Shown: positions 9,960 to 57,289 of the stretch, piece after piece
How positions within the stretch are numbered: position 1 is the stretch's first letter
Layout: each line of letters opens with the position of its first letter
Source of the DNA: Ginglymostoma cirratum
Taxonomy: Eukaryota
DNA: 64,000 nt
Assembly: GCA_024137785.1 (NCBI GenBank)
Contig: JAHRHZ010000013.1
Location: 45,065,674 to 45,129,673, forward strand
Direction: 5' to 3'
Program-made: the position numbers and the translations under genes
Notes under the pieces: generated by a model
What the model was told of the DNA's origin: nothing
Databases searched by the model: none
The model's input: the letters and a program-made list of their open reading frames with translations, nothing else

Positions 9960-11200
9960 GACAATTTTATAACAGGTCTGAGAAATCTATTGTTTGGGGA
10001 GGTAACAAGCAATGTAGATAAAAGGGAACTAGTACATACAATACATTTTGATTTCCAAGGTGCATTTGATAAGATACTACACAAGGCTCCTCAATAAGTG
10101 ATGAGCCATAGTGCTGGGGACAGTGCATTAGCATAGACAGAAGATTGGCTAACTAATAGAAGACAGGGATAGTAGGAACTGCAGATGCTGGAGAATCTGA
10201 GAAAACAAGGTGCAGAGCTGGATGAACACAGCAGGCCAAGCAGCATTGGATAAGGAAGCATTTTCACAACAACAACTTGTAATGAATGGTGTGCCACATG
10301 GATCAGTGCTGTGGCCACAATTTTTTACAATATATATTAGTGACGCAAGAAAATATACTCTAGCCATTTTGCAGATGTCAAAAAGAACAGACAGAAAAGC
10401 AAATACGGAGGATGACATAATCAACAGAGGATTATAAACGGATGAAAGGAGTGGGCAAAAGCATGGTAGATGGAAGATAATGGAATAGTAGGAAAATGTG
10501 AGATTGTGCACTGGGGCAGGAAGAATAGGACAGTGATTATTTAAGGAGGGAGACACAGACACAGTGAGAGAGAGAGTGCGCGAGACACACAGCGAGAGAG
10601 AGAGCGAGAGAGAGAGACAGAGACAGAGAGAATGAGAGCGAGAGAGAGAGAGACACACACACGCANNNNNNNNNNNNNNNNNNNNNNNNNNNNNNNNNNN
10701 NNNNNNNNNNNNNNNNNNNNNNNNNNNNNNNNNNNNNNNNNNNNNNNNNNNNNNNNNNNNNNNNNNNNNNNNNNNNNNNNNNNNNNNNNNNNNNNNNNNN
10801 NNNNNNNNNNNNNNNNNGAAACCTGCACAGAATGATTTGGTGTTCCTCGTGCATAAGGAGTTGGCATCCCAGTTCAGCATATAATAGCAAAGGCAAATTG
10901 AAGTAAAGGCCGATATTTGAAGGGAATGGAGCATAAAAGTAGCAATGTCTTTCGAAAGCTACAGAAGGCACTAAATCGGACCACACCTAAATTACAGTGA
11001 ATAGTTTTGGTTCCCTCATCTATGATAAGGTAAATTGGCTTTGGAGGCAGTCTAAAGAAGTCAGTAGAAGATCCAAAGTATGAGGCGATTTGCTTATGAA
11101 GTGAGATTGAGTAGATTGGAGGTTTAGTTAAATGAGACGCACTGTTATTGAAATATGTAACAGTCTCAAGATTCAGCAACAAAAATTGGGTATGGCATTT
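9960..11200 (+). mobile_element. CR1 LINE RT remnant with a PLE-terminus fragment (10165-10247, minus), microsatellite and gap
   Basis: DFQGAFDK.. and GVPHGSVLWP motifs; inserted gatagtaggaactgcagatgctggagaatc...gcagcat. Confidence 0.75.
10548..10665. repeat. (GA)n/(CA)n compound microsatellite next to assembly gap 10666-10817
   Basis: Directly visible. Confidence 0.95.
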
Positions 11201-13454: not shown

Positions 13455-13690
13455 TGCAAAGTGCTGGCCATGTTCGGCACGTCTAACAGCACCTGAGGAA
13501 AGAGAAACAGAGTTAACATTTTGAGTCTGAAATGGCTTTTCTTTGGAACTGGAGTAAGTTTCCGAAGAAAAGACATATTGAACTCGAAATGTTAACTCTG
13601 CTTCCCTCTTCACAGGTGCTTCCAGACCTGCTAAGCTTTTTCCCAATGCTTCATTTTATTTGAGATCGCCAATATTTTGCTTTTACTTTT
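13455..13690. mobile_element. Inverted head-to-head pair of family-B PLE termini
   Basis: cagagttaacattttgagtc (minus copy) then aactcgaaatgttaactctg (plus copy). Confidence 0.7.
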
Positions 13691-27513: not shown

Positions 27514-27621
27514 AGGACACTCTATTGAGTCATCTATAAATTGTAAACCAAAATAGTCTTTCTCAATCAAGTCCAGGTGTTTATAGACCATATCCAACAG
27601 AACTTGACCGACATCTTGTTT
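27514..27621 (-). CDS. PTPN3: PTPN3 coding exon 2, FERM F1 ([36 protein letters not shown])
   Basis: 108 nt, ttttacAG / GTAAGT boundaries; FERM YFGL motif; overlaps ORF 27493..27678. Confidence 0.96.
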
Positions 27622-29636: not shown

Positions 29637-30276
29637 AGATAACAAGATGTGGAGCTGGATGAACACAGCAGGCCAAGCAGCATCATAGGCGCAGGAAAGC
29701 TTGACGTTTCGGGCCTAGACCCTTCATCAGAAATGGGGGAGGGGAAGAGGGTTCTGAAATAAATAGGGAGAGAGGGGGAGGCGGATAGAAGATGGGTAGA
29801 GGAGAGGATAGGTGGAGAGGAGGCAGACAAGTCAAAGAAGCGGGGATGGAGCCAGTAAAGGTGAGTGTAGGTGGGGGTGTAGGGAGGAAATAGGTCAGTC
29901 CAGGGAGGACAGACAGGACAAGGGGGCGGGATGAGGTTAGTAGATAGGAGATGGGGGTGGGGCTTGAGGTGGGGGGAGGGGATAGGAGAGAGGAAGGACA
30001 GGTTAGGGAAGCAGGGATGACATGGTCAAGCAGTTTCAAGGCCAAAGAGATTATAAGAGAGTTGCAGTGGGAGAGAGATCCCCTGAGGATTGTCCGGAGG
30101 GAGGAGGGTAACTTCTTCAGGGTAGGCATCCTTAGAAGAGGCTTCGCAGTGGGGTTAAAATTGTATCAGAGATAATAGATACTGCAGATGCTGGAGAATC
30201 CGAGATAACAAGGTGTGGAGCTGGATGAACACAGCAGGCCAAGCAGCATCATAGGAGCAGGAAAGCTTGACGTTTC
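29637..30276 (-). mobile_element. Internally deleted non-autonomous Penelope-like element (family A) with direct terminal repeats
   Basis: A ~75-nt block (gataacaag.tgtggagctggatgaacacagcaggccaagcagcatcatagg..caggaaagcttgacgtttc) is repeated at 29637-29710 and 30203-30276; the 3' part matches 36155-36380. Confidence 0.8.
29703..29730 (-). ncRNA. Minimal type I hammerhead ribozyme core (intact)
   Basis: Minus strand reads CUGAUGA-AGGGUCUAGGCCC-GAAA-CGUC; all conserved core nucleotides present, GUC cleavage triplet. Confidence 0.8.
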
Positions 30277-31499
30277 AAGAGTGAGACCATGTTATTCAAC
30301 ATGTCACAATCACCATTCAGGAGACATGTTACATGTTAAACTAGTTAACTATGGCAAATTTGATTTTTTTAAAAAATCTAAGTACTTGCAGTCTGTCAGT
30401 CCTTAAAGTAGCACTGTGATAGGGATTTTCAATGCCAAATGTGTCACACTGTGTGCACACATTACTTCATTCATCATGTGAGTCTATCAACTTTCACAGT
30501 TGCAGAATCTGGCCAGAGCTCCCATAAGACACTGAAAAAATAGTGATCATATCCCCCCTTTGCACTTTACCTTATTAAAAAGTTCACAACACTCATTTCT
30601 ACCCAAATAAAAGTCGATCAGCATCCTGTTGTAGACCTTAATTTGCATATTTAAACTACCTTAGAGTTATCCATTTACAAGCCCACAAGAATATTTCAAT
30701 AACAAGGCATAAAGTGCCCAAGATAGTGGTCATGTGCTGACTCCCTTGCTGCTACCCACCCTTATGATTTTTCATTGCTGATATACTGTTCTTCATGTGA
30801 CAAATGAGAGGTTGGCAGATGAAAATCATTTCATATCAATGTCTGATTTTTACCAAAAATAATGGTTGAATTTTCAAAAGATAATTGATGATGCTTTCCA
30901 CCTGTAAAATGGATCCCACCTCTTGACATTCAGAAGCACTAAGTAAAAGACGCAAAGACAAGGGTGTCTAGAATGCCACTCTACTGTTAAATAAGCAGAA
31001 GATGAGAATGCGAGTTTTATTGGTCTTTGACCCCTTATCTCGTTTGCTGGTCCTCAAACATTGTTACTGCATGCCCATAGTTTTGGGAGTCTTTACAGAA
31101 GTGTGGGTAGCACAACTTGAGCCAACAGGGAGCTATGCCCACAATGGGGAGGCTGAGACAGAACAGGTGGCAGGTGCGCATCAAGTGGAGATGAAGGGAA
31201 TGGCGGAGGGATGGCAAGGGCACTGGAGGGCACAAAGGAGGATGCATGTACTGGAGGGGAGGTGGGTGGGGATGTGTGGTATTAGTAACAAGGACAGGAT
31301 GGCACTGGAGGACTGGAATGGAGGATGGATATTGCATAGAATAAAAGAATGAAATGTGGTTGATAGGAGGGATGAAAAGAAGGGAAGAGTATAGAATGGA
31401 GAGTGATATCAGGGAAAGGATGGAAAGGCACTCGATGGGGATTTAGAGAAGTACTATTCCCATAAGACATATAATTTCCTTTATCACAAATAAAGAACC

Positions 31500-31946
31500 A
31501 TCCTTTGTGTGAAAATATTTGCCTCCTCAGGTCCCTTTTAACTCTTTCTCCTCTCACCTTAAAAATATGCACCCTAGTTTTGAACTCTCCCACCCTAGGG
31601 AAAAGATCTTTGTTATTCACCTTATCTATGCCCTTCATGATTTTATAAACCTCTATAAAGTCACTCCTCAACCTTCTATACTGCAATGAAAAAGTCCTAG
31701 CCTATTCAGCCTCTCCTTATAAGTCAAACCCTCCAGTCCCAAAACATCCAGGTAAATCTGTTTTGAACCCTCTCCAATTTAATAATATCCTACCCATAAC
31801 AGGGTGACCAGAACTGTACACGGAGATAGTAGGAACTGCAGATGCTGGATCATCTGAGACAACAAGGTGTAGAGCTGGATGAACACACCAGGCCAAGCAG
31901 CAGAGGAGCAGGAAGGCTGACGTTTCAGGCCTAGACCCTTCTTCAC
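31500..31946 (-). mobile_element. CR1 fragment (31500-31822) abutting a family-A PLE terminus (31823-31946) with a near-complete hammerhead
   Basis: RRLRSDFIEVYKIMKGIDKV..LFPRVGEFKTR; minus strand gUGAAGA-agggucuaggccu-GAAA-CGUC. Confidence 0.8.
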
Positions 31947-35211: not shown

Positions 35212-36380
35212 CAAGGACCGCAACTTCCCCCCCACAGTGGTCGAGAACGCCCTCGACCGTGTCTCCCGCATTTCCCGGAACACATCCCTCACGCCCCGTC
35301 CCCGCAACAATAACCAAAAAAGAATCCCCCTCGTCCTCACATACCACCCCACCAACCTCCGGATCCAACGCATCATCCTCCGACACTCCACCATCTGCCA
35401 CACCACACCACCACCAAAGACATTTTTCCCTCCCCACCCTTATCTGCCTTCCGGAGGGACCACTCCCTCCGCGACTCCCTTGTCCGCTCCACACTCCCCT
35501 CCAGCCCCACCACACCCGGCACTTTTCCTTGTAACCGCAGGAAGTGCTACACCTGCCCCCACACCTCCTCCCTCACCCCAATCCCAGGCCCCAAGAAGAC
35601 TTTCCACATCAGGCAGAGGTTCACCTGCACATCTGCCAATGTGGTATACTGCATCCGCTGTACCCGTTGTGGCTTCCTCTACATCGGGGAAACCAAGCGG
35701 AGGCTTGGGGACCGCTTTGCAGAACACCTGCGCTCAGTTCGCAACAAACAACTGCACCTCCCAGTCGCGAACCATTTCAACTCCCCCTCCCATTCCTCAG
35801 ATGACATGTCCATCCTTGGCCTCCTGCAATGCCACAGTGATGCCACCCGAAGGCTGCAGGAACAGCAAATCATATTCAGCCTGGGAACCCTGCAGCCCAA
35901 TGGCATCAATGTGGATTTCACAAGCTTCAAAATCTCCCCTCCCCCAACCGCATCCCAAAACCAGCCCAGCTCATCTCCACTTCCCTAACCTGTTTTTCCT
36001 CTCACCCCAAGCCACACCCCCATCTCCTATCTACTAACATCATCCCGCCCCCTTNNNNNNNNNNNNNNNNNNNNNNNNNNNNNNNNNNNNNNNNNNNNNN
36101 NNNNNNNNNNNNNNNNNNNNNNNNNNNNNNNNNNNNNNNNNNNNNNNNNNNNNNCTACCTACACTCACCTTTACTGGCTCCATCCCCACCTCTTCGACTT
36201 GTCTGCCTCCTCTCCACCTATCATCTCCTCTATCCGCCTCCCCCCTCTCCCTATTTATTTCAGAACCCTCTTCCCCTCCCCCATTTCTGAAGAAGGGTTT
36301 AGGCCCGAAACGTCAAGTTTTCCTGCTCCTATGATGCTGCTTGACCTGCTGTGTTCATCCAGCCCCGTGCTTGTTATCTC
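35212..36380 (+). mobile_element. Young 5'-truncated Penelope-like element: RT C-terminus/linker, GIY-YIG endonuclease, terminal repeat with hammerhead
   Basis: RIPLVLTYHP; Cys-rich linker PCNRRKCYTCP (Neptune-like); VVYCIRCTRCGFLYIGETKRRLGDRFAEH..VANHF..LGTLQPNGIN; frameshift near 35385; gap 36055-36154. Confidence 0.9.
36287..36314 (+). ncRNA. Minimal type I hammerhead ribozyme core (intact)
   Basis: CUGAAGA-AGGGUUUAGGCCC-GAAA-CGUC at the 3' terminus of the PLE. Confidence 0.78.
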
Positions 36381-38687: not shown

Positions 38688-38815
38688 ATTTTCTGAAGAA
38701 GGATCCTGACCAGAAATGTTACCCTCCCTGCTCCTCTGATTCTGCCTGGCCTGCTGGGCTCCTCCAGCTCCACACTGTTATCTCTGACTCCACCATCGGC
38801 AGTTCTTACTATTGC
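38688..38815 (+). mobile_element. Family-A PLE terminus with degenerate hammerhead (core 38693-38720)
   Basis: CUGAAGA-aggauccugacca-GAAA-UGUU followed by ccctgctcctctgattctgcctggcctgctg. Confidence 0.7.
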
Positions 38816-39856
38816 TGAGTGAGCATTGAGAAGATGTCATTCCTTTCAGCAATACATTTTCAAAAGTTTCTCCAATTCAAAGGAGGTGAGAGTCAACGCA
38901 TTTCAGAGGGAAAAATAAGGCAAGAGAACAAACAATAAATAATAGTGAGGTTTAGGGTTAAGGAAATATGTGGGATTCTTTTCCTTAACAATTGAGACTT
39001 TGAAACAAAAGAACCAATGGAAAGTTAAAGACTTGAAACTTTAACTGTCCTTGTTTTATGCCAGATTTCTAGCTCTGAAGATTTTTGCTTTCGAATTGGT
39101 TTACTCTAGAACCATATAAAACACTAGTCTGACAACAACTAGTGTCTGGTCACCACAATGTGCAAAGGATGTGAATATAATAGAGGGAGTATAGAGGAGA
39201 TTTGTTAAGGTGTTGTTAGGAATGGATTTTTTTATGTAGGTATGAGGAAAGATTGGATAATTTTTGTTGAATCAAAGAAAGTTGAGGGGATTATTGGGCT
39301 ATAAAATTATGAGGGTCTTCGAAAGAATGGATAGCAAGGACCAAATTTCCTTTAGCAGAGACAGCTCAACACCAAATGGGAATATATTTCAAGTATTTTT
39401 CAAAGGGATTAGAACGCAATTGTTAAGAAAACTTTTCATCGAGGCTGCATCAACAAGATTGGAACGCACTGCCTGTGAAAAGGCTGGCAGAGGCAGAAAT
39501 CCTCATTACTTCATGCCCTTGAAGTGATATAACCTACTGGGCTATAGACCAAGGGCTAGAAAGTGGGATTAGATTGTATCAAACAGCCCGAGCATAAGGA
39601 GACTGCTTCAGTTAAGGCTCTGGTCAATGTTAGCCTTCAGGCTGTCAAAGGTTCAATGAGTTAAATCTCTAACATGTTGGGTAATCCAATAAATCATGCA
39701 TGCTTCACTGCAGGCCACTACTGATCAATTCACCTGTTTGTTCAATAATGCAAACTGGAAGGGAGAGACTCTTGTGGCACAGTGATAGTGTTTTTACCTC
39801 CGAATCAGTACATTGGGTTCAAGTCCCACCTGCTGTAGTGGTGTGTGATAGCATCA

Positions 39857-40530
39857 GAGATAGTAGGAACTGCCGATGCTGGAGTCTGAGATAACAAGGT
39901 GTGGAGCTGGATGAACACAGCAGGCCAGGCAGCATCAAAGGAGCAGGAAAGCCGATGTTTTGGGTCTGGACCCTTCATCAGAGATGGGGGAGGGGAAGGG
40001 GGCTCTGAAATAAATAGAGAGAGGGGGAGGCGATGATAGAAGGTGGATAGTGGAGCAGATAGGTGGAGAAAAGATGGACAGGTCAAGGAGGCAAGGATGA
40101 AGCTAGTAAAGGTGAGTGTAGGGAGGGAGTTGGGATGGGGGTTGGTCAGTGAGGTGGGAGGAGCAGATAGGTGGGAGAGAAGACAGACAGGTCAAGAAGG
40201 CGGGGACTGGTCTTGGGATGAGGTCGAGGGTGGGGACATTTTGAAGCTTGTAAAGCCCACATTGAGACCATTGGGTTGTAGGTTTCCAAGGTGGAATAGG
40301 AAGTGCTGTTCCTCCAGTTTCCGGGTGGCATCGTTGTGACACTGGAGGCAGCCCAGGATGGACATGTCACCCAAGGAGTGGGAGGGGGAGTTGAAGTGGT
40401 TCGCGACTGGGAGGTGCAGTCGTTTGTCCCAAACCAAGCGTAGATGCTCCACAAAGCGGTCTCCAAGCCTCCGCTTGGTCTCCCTTACGTAGATGAGGCC
40501 ACACCGGGAACAGCGGACACAATAGACACA
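39857..40530 (-). mobile_element. 5'-truncated Penelope-like element with GIY-YIG fragment and mutated hammerhead (39954-39981)
   Basis: VYCVRCSRCGLIYVRETKRRLGDRFVEHLR..VANHF..LGNLQPNGLN; CUGAUGA-aggguccagaccc-AAAA-CAUC. Confidence 0.88.
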
Positions 40531-43139: not shown

Positions 43140-43277
43140 ATTAACTTTGAAGCTCTGCAAATTTCCATCAAGGAACTGGACATTACAGATGATCTCTGAC
43201 CGATGCTTGTCTCTTGGTATTTCAAAAGCACGTGTGTGGTTTGTTCTCCCACCCAGCACACGAAATCGTGATGTCAT
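43140..43277 (-). CDS. PTPN3: PTPN3 first coding exon ([46 protein letters not shown])
   Basis: ATG at 43277; 138 nt; donor GTAAGT follows; acceptor ttttatttAG 17 nt upstream of the ATG (exon starts 43294). Resembles the human PTPN3 N-terminus [38 protein letters not shown] as recalled. Confidence 0.95.
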
Positions 43278-43689
43278 CACTATCCTTCCAACACCTAAAT
43301 AAAAATATTAAGAGTAAAGCCAAAAGGTGCAAGTGAAATAAATTCCAATCAAGTTATCAACGCTGAATTAACTTCCTTTAGGTCATAACTTCATTTGTAC
43401 TGAATAGACATCAGATATCTGAAGCTATGCAATCAATAATACTATCCCATTGAACGTATAAATGAACGCTGAGCTGTTAAATGAGGTTTTGCCTAACCTT
43501 TGAAGGTACTTAGTAATTGTAGCACAGCCAATTCAAATTATGATAATTGATACACTCCCACACCCCAACTGCTTGTAATACCATGTTAGGGAAGTTAACA
43601 TGTAGTTTTCAGGTTGGGTTGTGGGTGGGGGTGGTATGTTTGGATAGGAGAATCATTGAATCAAGGCACATAGATATCATTTGGGGTAA

Positions 43690-53770: not shown

Positions 53771-56374
53771 TTCCAAGAGTTCCCACGTTCTTGCTTCATG
53801 GGACAAATGGAGTAAATACATTTCAAATTTGTTCATATTGCATGATGAAGAAGCATGAATCTGCCAGTAAAATAACACTTTTGCATTTAAATACAAGGTT
53901 GAATTATTAGTTCTTCTACCTCTCCCTGGCCCAACCGTGAAACAGTCAAACAGAATACCTAACCTTTTAAAGTAATGCAAAAAAAAAAGTAGGATCTAAA
54001 AGATGTATACAAAGTTTCCAGCATGAGAGCATGAGGAAAATTTCTAAAGATTTACTGTGGTTCTAACTCACCCAGTTTTATCCTGTGACCAGTAACTGTT
54101 GAGTAAGAATGGCCTTGTGGAAAGAAATACATAGACATACATGCATTGCATAATCTCAAGACTGCACTAAAAAACTGAAATTGCATGCTACCACTTGCCT
54201 TGCCTTAAAAGAAAACGCGTAAAGATAAGACAAAATATGTCAACGGAAAGATCAATTATGAGCACATATTTTAATTAACAATTTATAGAGCTCCACACCA
54301 CAGATTTGTCTTAGTGAACCTAACATTTTGTGCATGTGATTAAATTGGATTGCGACAAACCTGTTCTCTGAAAGAAATGCAGCCAGGCTTAATGTGAATC
54401 ACAAACAAGGCAAGAGATCAAGTATCTTTCTGACGACGCCACAGTTTAGCACATACTTTCACATTCTCCTGATTTCCTGTCCACATGACTAAAAAGATAG
54501 CTTTATGGTAGGTACACAAACTTGATATTTTACAGCCACTGCCAGATGGATCAAATCCAATTATGATGTAGACAGCGTACAAATACCTTGTAGCAACACC
54601 TACTTTTACTTGTTGATCCTTCACCTGCAACTCTGGAAACCAGTCTCTGGTGGAGATTTTAGGAACCAGAAAAAGAAAACAAATTCAATGAACCCATATA
54701 ATTAACTTTCTAGCAATTAACACTGAAAATCAATATGAAAAATGTATCAGAATCAAAATAGTCATACAATTCCACAAGTTGAAATCTAGAGGTATTTCTA
54801 TATATACAGTATTTCAGTACATCAGCATTTTAGATCTTCAGATTGCAAAAAGTATCAATATGGTTTTTGATAGGTAAATGACAGAGCCATTAAAAATCTA
54901 AAAGTGTGCTAGGCATGGAAATGGTAGAACAGGAGGTCTGTTAGAAGATAAATTAAGTAAAACAATTACAGGAGATCAGAATATGGCAGAGATTTTGAAC
55001 ACATTCATCATCTCTATATGTATTCAAGAGGAATATAGATGAATGAAATGGGTGAGACACATTAAATTTACTAAAATGTTGGGCAGTAAATGAAAGGACT
55101 AACTACCCGTAAGGCTTCTAGATATGACAGAACATATTATGGAATCATAACAAAACAAAAATGCTGAATTTAGTAATGCTTTGGCTGAGAGTTTGTACAG
55201 TTCCATCATTGGTTTGGAGAATTGGAGACAAACAAATACACAATAATTTTAAACTGAGTTCAATAAAACCCTGGAGAAAATGCTCAAAAACAAACAAACA
55301 TTCTAGAAATGCCAGAAATGAACATTTGCCAATGCACAGGTGTCAAATGACTTAGCTAATGCAGTACAAGAATAGGCCATACCTTAAAGAATCTACTAGA
55401 ATTCTTCGAAGTAATTAATTCAATAGTGAAATAGCTTAAATCAGAAAATGTGGGTTGTATAGTTATTACAGAATAGAAACGGGGCATTAGGTCCAACTGG
55501 TTTAGTTGACACACTACTATTTATACGCCATGAAAATCTCCTCCCAATTTAATTACATATTTCCACCCAGGTCTTGATCCATATATTTTCTCTGTTATGC
55601 GTCAAGCCTTCTCTTAAATGTATCTATACCACTTCAATCACTGTACATGCCAATTAGTTCCACATTCTCATATAAAAGAAATCTGCCTAGAATTATTTAT
55701 CTTTATGCCCCTTTGCTCTGGGCTCAACCACGAGTGGGAATAGTTTAACACCACACTTATTTTTAATCTCCTTCTTAATTTTGAAGATTTCGCCAGTTCT
55801 CCATAGTCTATTTTTCCAAGGTAAAATAGTCCTTATCAGCTCAAGCATTCACATAATTTAACAGCCTCGCAAACATTCTACACAGCTGCACCAATGCTTC
55901 AACATTCTGTTTGTAGAAAAGCTGTGAAAGAACTTTGTAGATTTTGTCTGAAGCAGAATACATAAAGCAGTCAATCTAAAGTTCTAGACAAACTTAACAT
56001 CAAATCTGATTTCCAAAGGTTTTCAGGCCCTTATGAAAGTAATAAGGAATATAATGTATAAACGAATTGATGACAAATCAACTTAGCAGAAGAAAACTGA
56101 GAGCAGTGAAACAGAAAAGTGTCACCTTTGGTTCAGCAGTAATACACTTGTTTGAGTCAGAAGATAATAGGTTCAAGTCCCATTCCAGAGATTTGGCATG
56201 TAATCTAGGCTGGCATTTTAAATGAATGTTGAGGAAATGCTACAAGCACAAAGGTGCCACCTTTCGAAAAGACATTAAACCTCGGCTCAGTTAACCTTCT
56301 CAAGTGTACTTAAAATATCCCACAGTACTATTTGAAAGGGGGTCAACACATTAACAGATGACTTGATTGTTTAA

Positions 56375-56470
56375 CAAGGCGTGGGGCTGGATGAACACAG
56401 CAGGCCAAGCAGCACCATAGGAGCAGGAAAACTTGACGTTTCGGGCCTAGACCCTGCAGTACCTTTTATC
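56375..56470 (-). mobile_element. ~96-nt family-A PLE mini-insertion with a 14-bp target-site duplication
   Basis: Flanked by acttgattgtttaa at 56361-56374 and 56471-56484. Confidence 0.8.
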
Positions 56471-57289
56471 ACTTGATTGTTTAATTGGTTTTTGTGGGAG
56501 CTAGCTGTGCACAGATTGGCTACTATTTTGGTCTGTGACAAAATGAAAATGTTCCTGCACCTGGGCTAAAAATTCCAGATTCAAGTCCTATACCAGGGCT
56601 TGTGGACCCGAATGTCTTTGACACAGTTAAAGACACTGATAGCTAGCCTGGGAATCCTTCTACATCCTCTCACCATTGTACAAAGGACAAAAAAAATGCG
56701 AAGATATACCAAAAATAATGACAACAACAACTACGCATCAAAAACAAACTACCTGACAGGATGCAAAGTCCTTTGGGTTTTCCTGAGGTGCTATTTTCCC
56801 AGAGTCCAGTTATTTTGCTTTTTTCCCTTTTTGAGTAGGTATCTAGCTCTTTGTAGATATTTAATTTTGATTTTGTTTTTATTTTAAGGTTAGCATTCCA
56901 GATCATCACATCTCACTGCACAAAAACCCTCATCCTTCCTGTGATTGGAGAAATAGTCATCTTAAATTTGCATCTCTCCCAAGACAAAAGTATATTCTGA
57001 ACAGATTCTGAATTCGCCCTCTCAAAACCTTCATGGTTTCAAACATCTCCATTAAATGTCATCGTAGCAGTCTCTGCTCTAAAGGAGAACAGAGGCAACT
57101 TCGCTAGCCCACCAACATACCCGAAATCTCACAGCCTTGGTGCCATTCTGTTAAGTTTGCTCTGCACTCTCTCCAAAGGACTTGATATCTTTCCTAAAGT
57201 TTGATGCCCATTGTTGGTCATAATATCCAACTGATGCCTCTCTTTACAAAGTCTAGGATCCCCCATGCTTTATAATACCCTTTGAAGCC

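Follow-up and report, generated by a model that had tools for sequence, protein, structure and literature searches.

Hammerhead ribozymes in the pseudo-LTRs of Penelope-like elements (PLEs) have already been published, as have non-autonomous PLEs and PLE-derived retrozymes, and pseudo-LTR formation in PLEs is itself described (PMC8969392; PMC6765202). The minimal type I hammerheads described in metazoan PLEs (Cervera and De la Pena, 2014; PMC4209133) carry the CUGANGA box, an extra nucleotide after A9, a G10.1-C11.1 pair and a palindromic ACGU instead of helix III. As reported there, a single minimal motif does not cleave and dimers cleave at low levels; circular templates giving insertions longer than one unit were proposed in the same paper. 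Frangieh et al. (PMC11167929) tied two start sites, set apart by a tail of 30-40 nt, to internal initiation of reverse transcription, and in the in vitro insertion described there protein was needed while hammerhead cleavage was not. Finally, PLE-derived retrozymes were described in vertebrates, one chondrichthyan included, with cleavage in 1/9 dimers (Li, Clavereau and Pollet, 2026; 10.64898/2026.07.22.740005).

The locus examined here lies on the minus strand (30276-29637) of a 64-kb window, the whole stretch of DNA that was analysed, and is a 640-nt internally deleted PLE copy whose middle coding part is gone (Table 1). Like the truncated or internally deleted EN+ PLE copies described in PMC3846280, PMC8557442 and PMC11167929, it is a partial tandem that yields a direct terminal repeat, has two preferred 3' ends about 35 nt apart and an ORF start just past the hammerhead, shows a deletion at microhomology, and derives from a parent with a CX2-5CxxC linker and, at the C-terminus, a GIY-YIG domain. 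Unlike those copies, it has a very short pseudo-LTR (74 nt) and has lost nearly the whole ORF.

Non-LTR retrozymes (PMC7229834; 10.64898/2026.07.22.740005) are likewise short, non-coding PLE terminal units with a type I hammerhead; the shark unit falls within the 51-972 bp given for them, extends over more than one unit, and contains neither RT nor EN. In contrast to their two or more complete units, the shark locus has 1.13 units and one core, its hammerhead is minimal rather than canonical, and it includes the ORF start. The two consecutive complete units that define a retrozyme in 10.64898/2026.07.22.740005 are absent at 1.13 units, and the GC content of 52.5% lies marginally above the limit of 50% in PMC7229834. 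We read the locus as an internally deleted PLE copy that, on its unit count, does not qualify as a retrozyme. It also shares with the Chlamydomonas non-autonomous PLE MRC1 (PMC8557442) the lack of coding sequence, the formation of a pseudo-LTR and a 3' end common with the autonomous family; derivatives of the MRC1 type are described as active multi-copy families, whereas the shark copy is known from one locus. Because it retains the parts likely to act in cis, 29637-30276 would behave like the template of a non-autonomous PLE. No description of the shark family was recognised among the titles covered, a coverage that excludes most subscription papers and Repbase.

Structure of the insertion and its parent element

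Table 1. Coordinates of the insertion, its parts, related fragments and flanking exons (window numbering).
Feature	Position	Strand	Remark
Whole insertion	29637..30276	-	Internally deleted PLE; 1.13 units of 566 nt
Upstream terminal repeat (pseudo-LTR stump)	30203..30276	-	Half hammerhead plus 66-nt tail; 97% to downstream copy
Half hammerhead GAAACGUC	30269..30276	-	Without CUGANGA or helix II
Optional tail extension	30168..30202	-	Between main 3' end (30202-30204) and second 3' ends (30168-30181)
PLE ORF, first 37 codons	30019..30129	-	ATG at 30129; matches PLE N-termini
Predicted pairing partner of the cleavage-site region (30271-30265 or 29705-29699)	30025..30031	-	Ends 5 nt before the junction
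Deletion junction	30019..30020	-	Microhomology of 2 nt (TC); RT, GIY-YIG and thus the bulk of the ORF lost
Pyrimidine-rich PLE 3' region	29731..30018	-	84-89% to copies at 36157-36379 and 40150-39889
Sole complete minimal type I hammerhead	29700..29733	-	Core 29730-29703
Downstream terminal repeat	29637..29710	-	End at 29637 is the PLE family's main 3' end
5'-truncated relative of the parent element	35213..36380	+	CX4CxxC linker and GIY-YIG (Pfam E 8.6e-6); shows the deleted part
Other family fragments	10164-10258, 31823-31945, ~35213-36380, 38690-38818, 39853-40520, 56372-56458		
PTPN3 first coding exon, upstream of insertion	43140..43294	-	Human PTPN3 is its best PDB match (E 4e-12)
Next PTPN3 exon, downstream of insertion	~27514..27621	-	Best PDB match human PTPN3, E 8e-10; limits approximate

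Read along the element, the parts follow in the order tail, ORF start, deletion, 3' region, hammerhead, tail. The initial annotation of this DNA had described a half hammerhead at 30276-30269, a terminal repeat, a second copy of that repeat and two GUC sites 566 nt apart; all of these coordinates and the spacing proved correct. The repeat is direct and 74 nt long (30276-30203 and 29710-29637), its copies are 97% identical and lie 566 nt apart, and GAAACGTC on the minus strand opens the upstream one at 30276-30269. No target-site duplication of 4 nt or more was found at the insertion ends.

To place the ends, contigs of four public runs were compared with 29711-30460, a stretch outside which the downstream repeat and the 3' flank lie. 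Loose ends with mixed sequence pile up at 30202-30204 in 4/4 runs (169, 226, 987 and 1710 records with loose ends at 30202), and further loose ends occur at 30181 (three runs) and at 30168-30169 (one run among those listed). These positions are the preferred 3' ends of the PLE family, and 29637 is the main one in the downstream repeat. Three of the seven window copies end at the main 3' end or within 4 nt of it, and the family has the pseudo-LTR plus optional tail of 30-40 nt that marks EN+ PLEs. In folding predictions, the tail (30250-30178, minus strand) forms a long hairpin; the main 3' end lies close to the tip of this hairpin, the second 3' ends close to its base.

On the 5' side, 3/4 short window copies begin inside the hammerhead motif (equivalents of 29726-29733), so a stop at this place is nothing unusual. 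In organism B, a 3192-nt contig (depth 9.74) matches the flank as far as 30274, beyond which it continues for 1919 unlike letters. We read this contig as an empty site, in which the relative appears to be without the insertion; since the alignment reaches 30274, the first three letters of GAAACGTC (30276-30274) may be common with the target. A 151-nt contig of run X1 (organism A) matches the flank without difference, so organism A is probably the species of the window.

The proposed PLE origin and non-coding state of the unit were borne out by N-terminus matches, by alignment of the 3' region and by the absence of RT and EN. The 37 codons match N-termini of zebra, whale, epaulette and bamboo sharks, with 78% identity over 41 aa to the carpet-shark protein P0001 (further matches P0019 and P0020). 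The matching carpet-shark proteins continue with KQTRY where the window element jumps. Past 30019, the sequence aligns with what follows the GIY-YIG ORF in two other copies (~35213-36380 and 40520-39853). The jump lands about 45 nt beyond the end of the ORF-derived region, with TC common to both sides. The ORF start is therefore joined to the PLE 3' region without RT or GIY-YIG, as had been claimed: 37 codons, then the TC junction. From the sizes of related ORF pieces, we infer that the lost middle measured about 2.5 kb or more. An open frame across the junction (147 codons / 160 aa) was considered as a protein and rejected: it holds no Pfam family, and none of its protein matches (1 in one search, 3 in another) extends past residue 39-41.

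What was lost can be seen in the 5'-truncated relative, where the linker CNRRKCYTC (in 35314-35988) precedes the endonuclease and which is 92% identical over 197 aa to whale-shark protein P0005. P0005 carries RVT_1 (E 9e-5, below the curated cut-off) followed by GIY-YIG. Judged by these domains, the parent is an EN+ PLE with RT and, at the C-terminus, GIY-YIG. According to PMC8557442, the CX2-5CxxC linker is common to Neptune, Nematis and Naiad and marks Neptune and Nematis among elements with a C-terminal EN; the putative Neptune label of the parent rests on linker, domain order and host group rather than on RT phylogeny.

The window holds seven fragments of the family, the 640-nt copy plus six others, and 0/6 of the others are full length. 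The anatomy described for 29637-30276 is real and not due to chance, but it is not special. One short copy (56372-56475, minus strand) has an inverted tail piece at its 5' end, an inverted pseudo-LTR form, and is apparently flanked by a target-site duplication (AAACAATCAAGT core) some 13 nt long. In whale shark, the acid phosphatase gene model P0002 ends in about 120 residues of the N-terminus of this PLE, either through exonisation or through a gene-prediction error. Elsewhere in the window, a 155-nt stretch (13477-13631) is 74% like its own reverse complement.

The insertion had been placed in sense orientation within a PTPN3 intron, and this stands, because PTPN3 exons flank it on the same strand (43294-43140 and ~27621-27514, minus). 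Judging from this position, the element would be transcribed within the PTPN3 pre-mRNA. Intronic PLE expansion is described for the whale shark (10.1101/443036). The pyrimidine tract of the element ends in TTTCAG 24 nt before the hammerhead core, and in the 3' flank GTGAGT lies 4 nt past the element; together they would delimit a possible 121-nt frameshifting cryptic exon in PTPN3 (29753-29633, minus strand).

The hammerhead and its predicted folding

The downstream core, described at the outset as intact, was confirmed on the minus strand. It reads CTGATGA-A-GGGT-CTAG-GCCC-GAAACGTC (29730-29703), with a 4-bp helix II, an extra A after A9, the palindromic ACGU and a 3-bp helix I (UUU/AAG). Every sequence mark of a minimal, dimer-type PLE hammerhead (CUGANGA, extra nucleotide after A9, G10.1-C11.1, GAAA, palindromic helix III, short helix I) is present at 29733-29700, in agreement with the earlier assignment, and the set is incomplete at the upstream half site. 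The shark motif, known from sequence, shares its features with the metazoan PLE hammerheads of PMC4209133 and differs in being at their short end, with 4 bp in helix II and 3 bp in helix I (helix I range 2-5 bp). Rfam gave no hammerhead in the window at the gathering score and none among the 5 matches at E up to 10; hammerhead patterns had 0 matches in the metagenome, viral and prokaryote collections. Across eight window rows, two of which are flank at these columns, helix II is 86% paired, with no excess over shuffles. After the cut site (equivalents of 29702-29699 and 36299-36296), subfamilies differ as AG vs AAG and AAGC vs AAGU, giving a helix I of 2 to 4 bp; the variant that allows 4 bp occurs in two window copies, and the AAG form prevails in the runs of organism A.

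Of the two hammerhead cleavage sites originally proposed, both GUC triplets exist, but they belong to one full hammerhead plus an 8-nt half and not to two ribozymes. With only one catalytic core, no more than one site could be cut by the locus on its own. The two ACGU segments, which had been suggested to pair in cis, can formally do so in a nested arrangement, but only 30269 then enters the active site; in this model the downstream GUC (29703) would need a second core in trans, from another molecule. Release of a 566-nt monomer by two cuts is accordingly unsupported, there being a single core. Another GAAACGUC, the third, lies at 31926 in the same intron, so the pair within the element is not singled out. 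The predicted cost of the hammerhead fold is 12-15 kcal/mol for the local and 23 kcal/mol for the cis arrangement (energies without a core tertiary term), and the active fold is predicted to be disfavoured. Folded as a circle, the 566-mer did no better than 40 shuffles (z -0.7, 36% paired).

In our models, a 7-bp helix between 30025-30031 and the cleavage-site region closes the 258-nt 5' part (30276-30019) into one domain (pair probability 0.99 in 30276-30019, and 0.91 with the downstream copy in a longer fold). An equally good duplex anywhere was found in 3.5% of 200 shuffles. A predicted helix that closes 5 nt before the junction is a mild pointer to an RNA-level event, noticed post hoc and without covariation support.

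Copies of the junction and origin of the insertion

A retrozyme-like family, the central proposal of the initial annotation, would be expected to share its junction, and here the proposal found no support. The junction is absent from the other window fragments (0/6), from the predicted carpet-shark proteins among the matches, none of which reads across it, and from the listed contig pieces, where 0/32 (of 243,926 in four runs) bridge it with 31 letters on each side. These 32 pieces show not even the locus's own junction, and a low-copy family, or tens to hundreds of older copies, would be compatible with them. Eight of the 32 start at 30019-30030, and four of those carry 31-269 unlike letters beyond, looking as full-length copies would. 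In 4/4 runs the junction bin has the lowest contig depth, at 0.10-0.69 of that in the bin to its left and 0.29-0.46 of that in the bin to its right; such depth is no copy number and does not rank the parts, and it carries no weight here.

The copy also has letters of its own. At 9 of the positions listed (40 rows of 101), at least 89% of the depth in all four runs belongs to a different letter; in run X1, the letters of this locus at 30089, 29974 and 29889 reach a depth of 0-13 vs 6.6 on the flank. These private changes argue against a burst of near-identical copies; an older family would not share them. A joint that 'goes back 566' was rejected as evidence for a circle. It is ordinary continuation through the hammerhead and arose because the stretch compared ended at 29711.

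Among the 15 joints listed of 384, seven link 30049-30080 to 29777-29906. All seven occur in organism C, one of them also in B and none in A; their ORF-side breakpoints fall mostly at 30049-30059 and would give units of about 270-420 nt. Each is weakly supported, by sides of 22-27 letters at a likeness of 85, and sides below 30 at such likeness are often repeat-derived. Their ORF-side 24-mers match the window 3' regions at only 12-15/24, so simple look-alikeness does not explain them. The seven joints suggest that short-circuited copies, running from the ORF start to the 3' region, recur and may amplify.

We hold, with moderate confidence, that an abundant carpet-shark PLE of Neptune type gave rise to this internally deleted copy with one complete minimal hammerhead, probably in a single insertion event and probably as a dead end; that the copy founded a new circular-RNA family is less likely. 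The structure, the canonical 3' end, the single core and the microhomology are seen in the sequence, and we infer the remaining steps as follows. A PLE RT supplied in trans would have started at the main start site, which lies 66 nt beyond the cut site of the hammerhead, and copied 382 nt back through the ribozyme and the 3' region. Aided by the 2-nt microhomology, it would then have jumped to a position 250 nt beyond the cut site, bypassing the ORF. The ORF start and tail would have been copied next, with a stop in the hammerhead motif and joining to the target through the 3-nt match. The product would be a 566-nt unit copied for 1.13 turns, with its true seam at the junction and not at the ribozyme site. 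In the PTPN3 pre-mRNA, such an element would undergo weak cleavage at most and would release no circle by itself. The 3' end of the insertion at the family's main 3' end is a tail signature that favours an internal RT start, as described in PMC11167929.

The TC microhomology agrees just as well with a deletion that took place later in the genome. The PLE may have inserted at full length, with a short pseudo-LTR, and only afterwards lost its middle by a microhomology-mediated event, with the same outcome, a dead one-off copy. PLEs in their standard form consist of a full-length element and, in tandem, a 5'-truncated copy (PMC8969392), internal deletions at microhomology are on record for PLE copies (PMC3846280), and both the microhomology at 30020-30019 and the lack of a bridging piece among the 32 listed would be expected. 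This course nevertheless takes two uncommon events in a window where 0/6 other fragments are full length, and it leaves the breakpoint adjoining a predicted domain boundary; we consider it possible, though rather unlikely.

More doubtful is a non-autonomous, retrozyme-like family, in which PLE enzymes would copy the 566-nt unit from short or circular RNA, cleaved by trans dimers or with protein help. The likely cis parts (tail, ORF start and hammerhead) are indeed kept, and in the Anolis element the initial 172 nt of the ORF are required (PMC11167929). More than unit length is expected from a circular template (PMC4209133), vertebrate PLE-derived retrozymes span the size range cited above, with a mean of 363 bp in one chondrichthyan (10.64898/2026.07.22.740005), and the seven other joints are not simple look-alikes. 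Yet the locus has one core instead of two, is not tandem and has a helix I of 3 bp; the circle is no more structured than shuffles; the copy has private mutations and no common junction in the window, the proteins or the listed contig pieces; and even with two cores, 8/9 Xenopus dimers did not cleave in vitro (10.64898/2026.07.22.740005). A misjoining of the two ends of a longer element during assembly is very improbable, since the element contains no N, the 2-nt microhomology is clean and no common repeat is long enough to mislead an assembler, even though the window has four N runs (one inside a related copy, at 36055-36154) and none of the 32 listed contig pieces confirms the junction.

As a single dead copy, the internally deleted PLE carries little weight, PLE hammerhead relics occurring about once per 9 kb in the window. 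A step from PLEs to retrozymes has been proposed, but not worked out, in 10.64898/2026.07.22.740005. Tentatively, and as an unlikely rather than an expected outcome, the carpet-shark Neptune RT may repeatedly short-circuit from the 3' region to the end of the folded ORF-start domain. This would produce mini-elements of 270-570 nt that keep the RT-binding region, tail and hammerhead, some of them amplifying to tens of copies; the locus would be an intermediate in the birth of retrozymes from PLEs, and any circle would have its seam at the jump site and not at the ribozyme cut. If short-circuited units with clustered breakpoints do recur and amplify, sharks would hold a large natural record of how retrozyme-like elements originate from PLEs.
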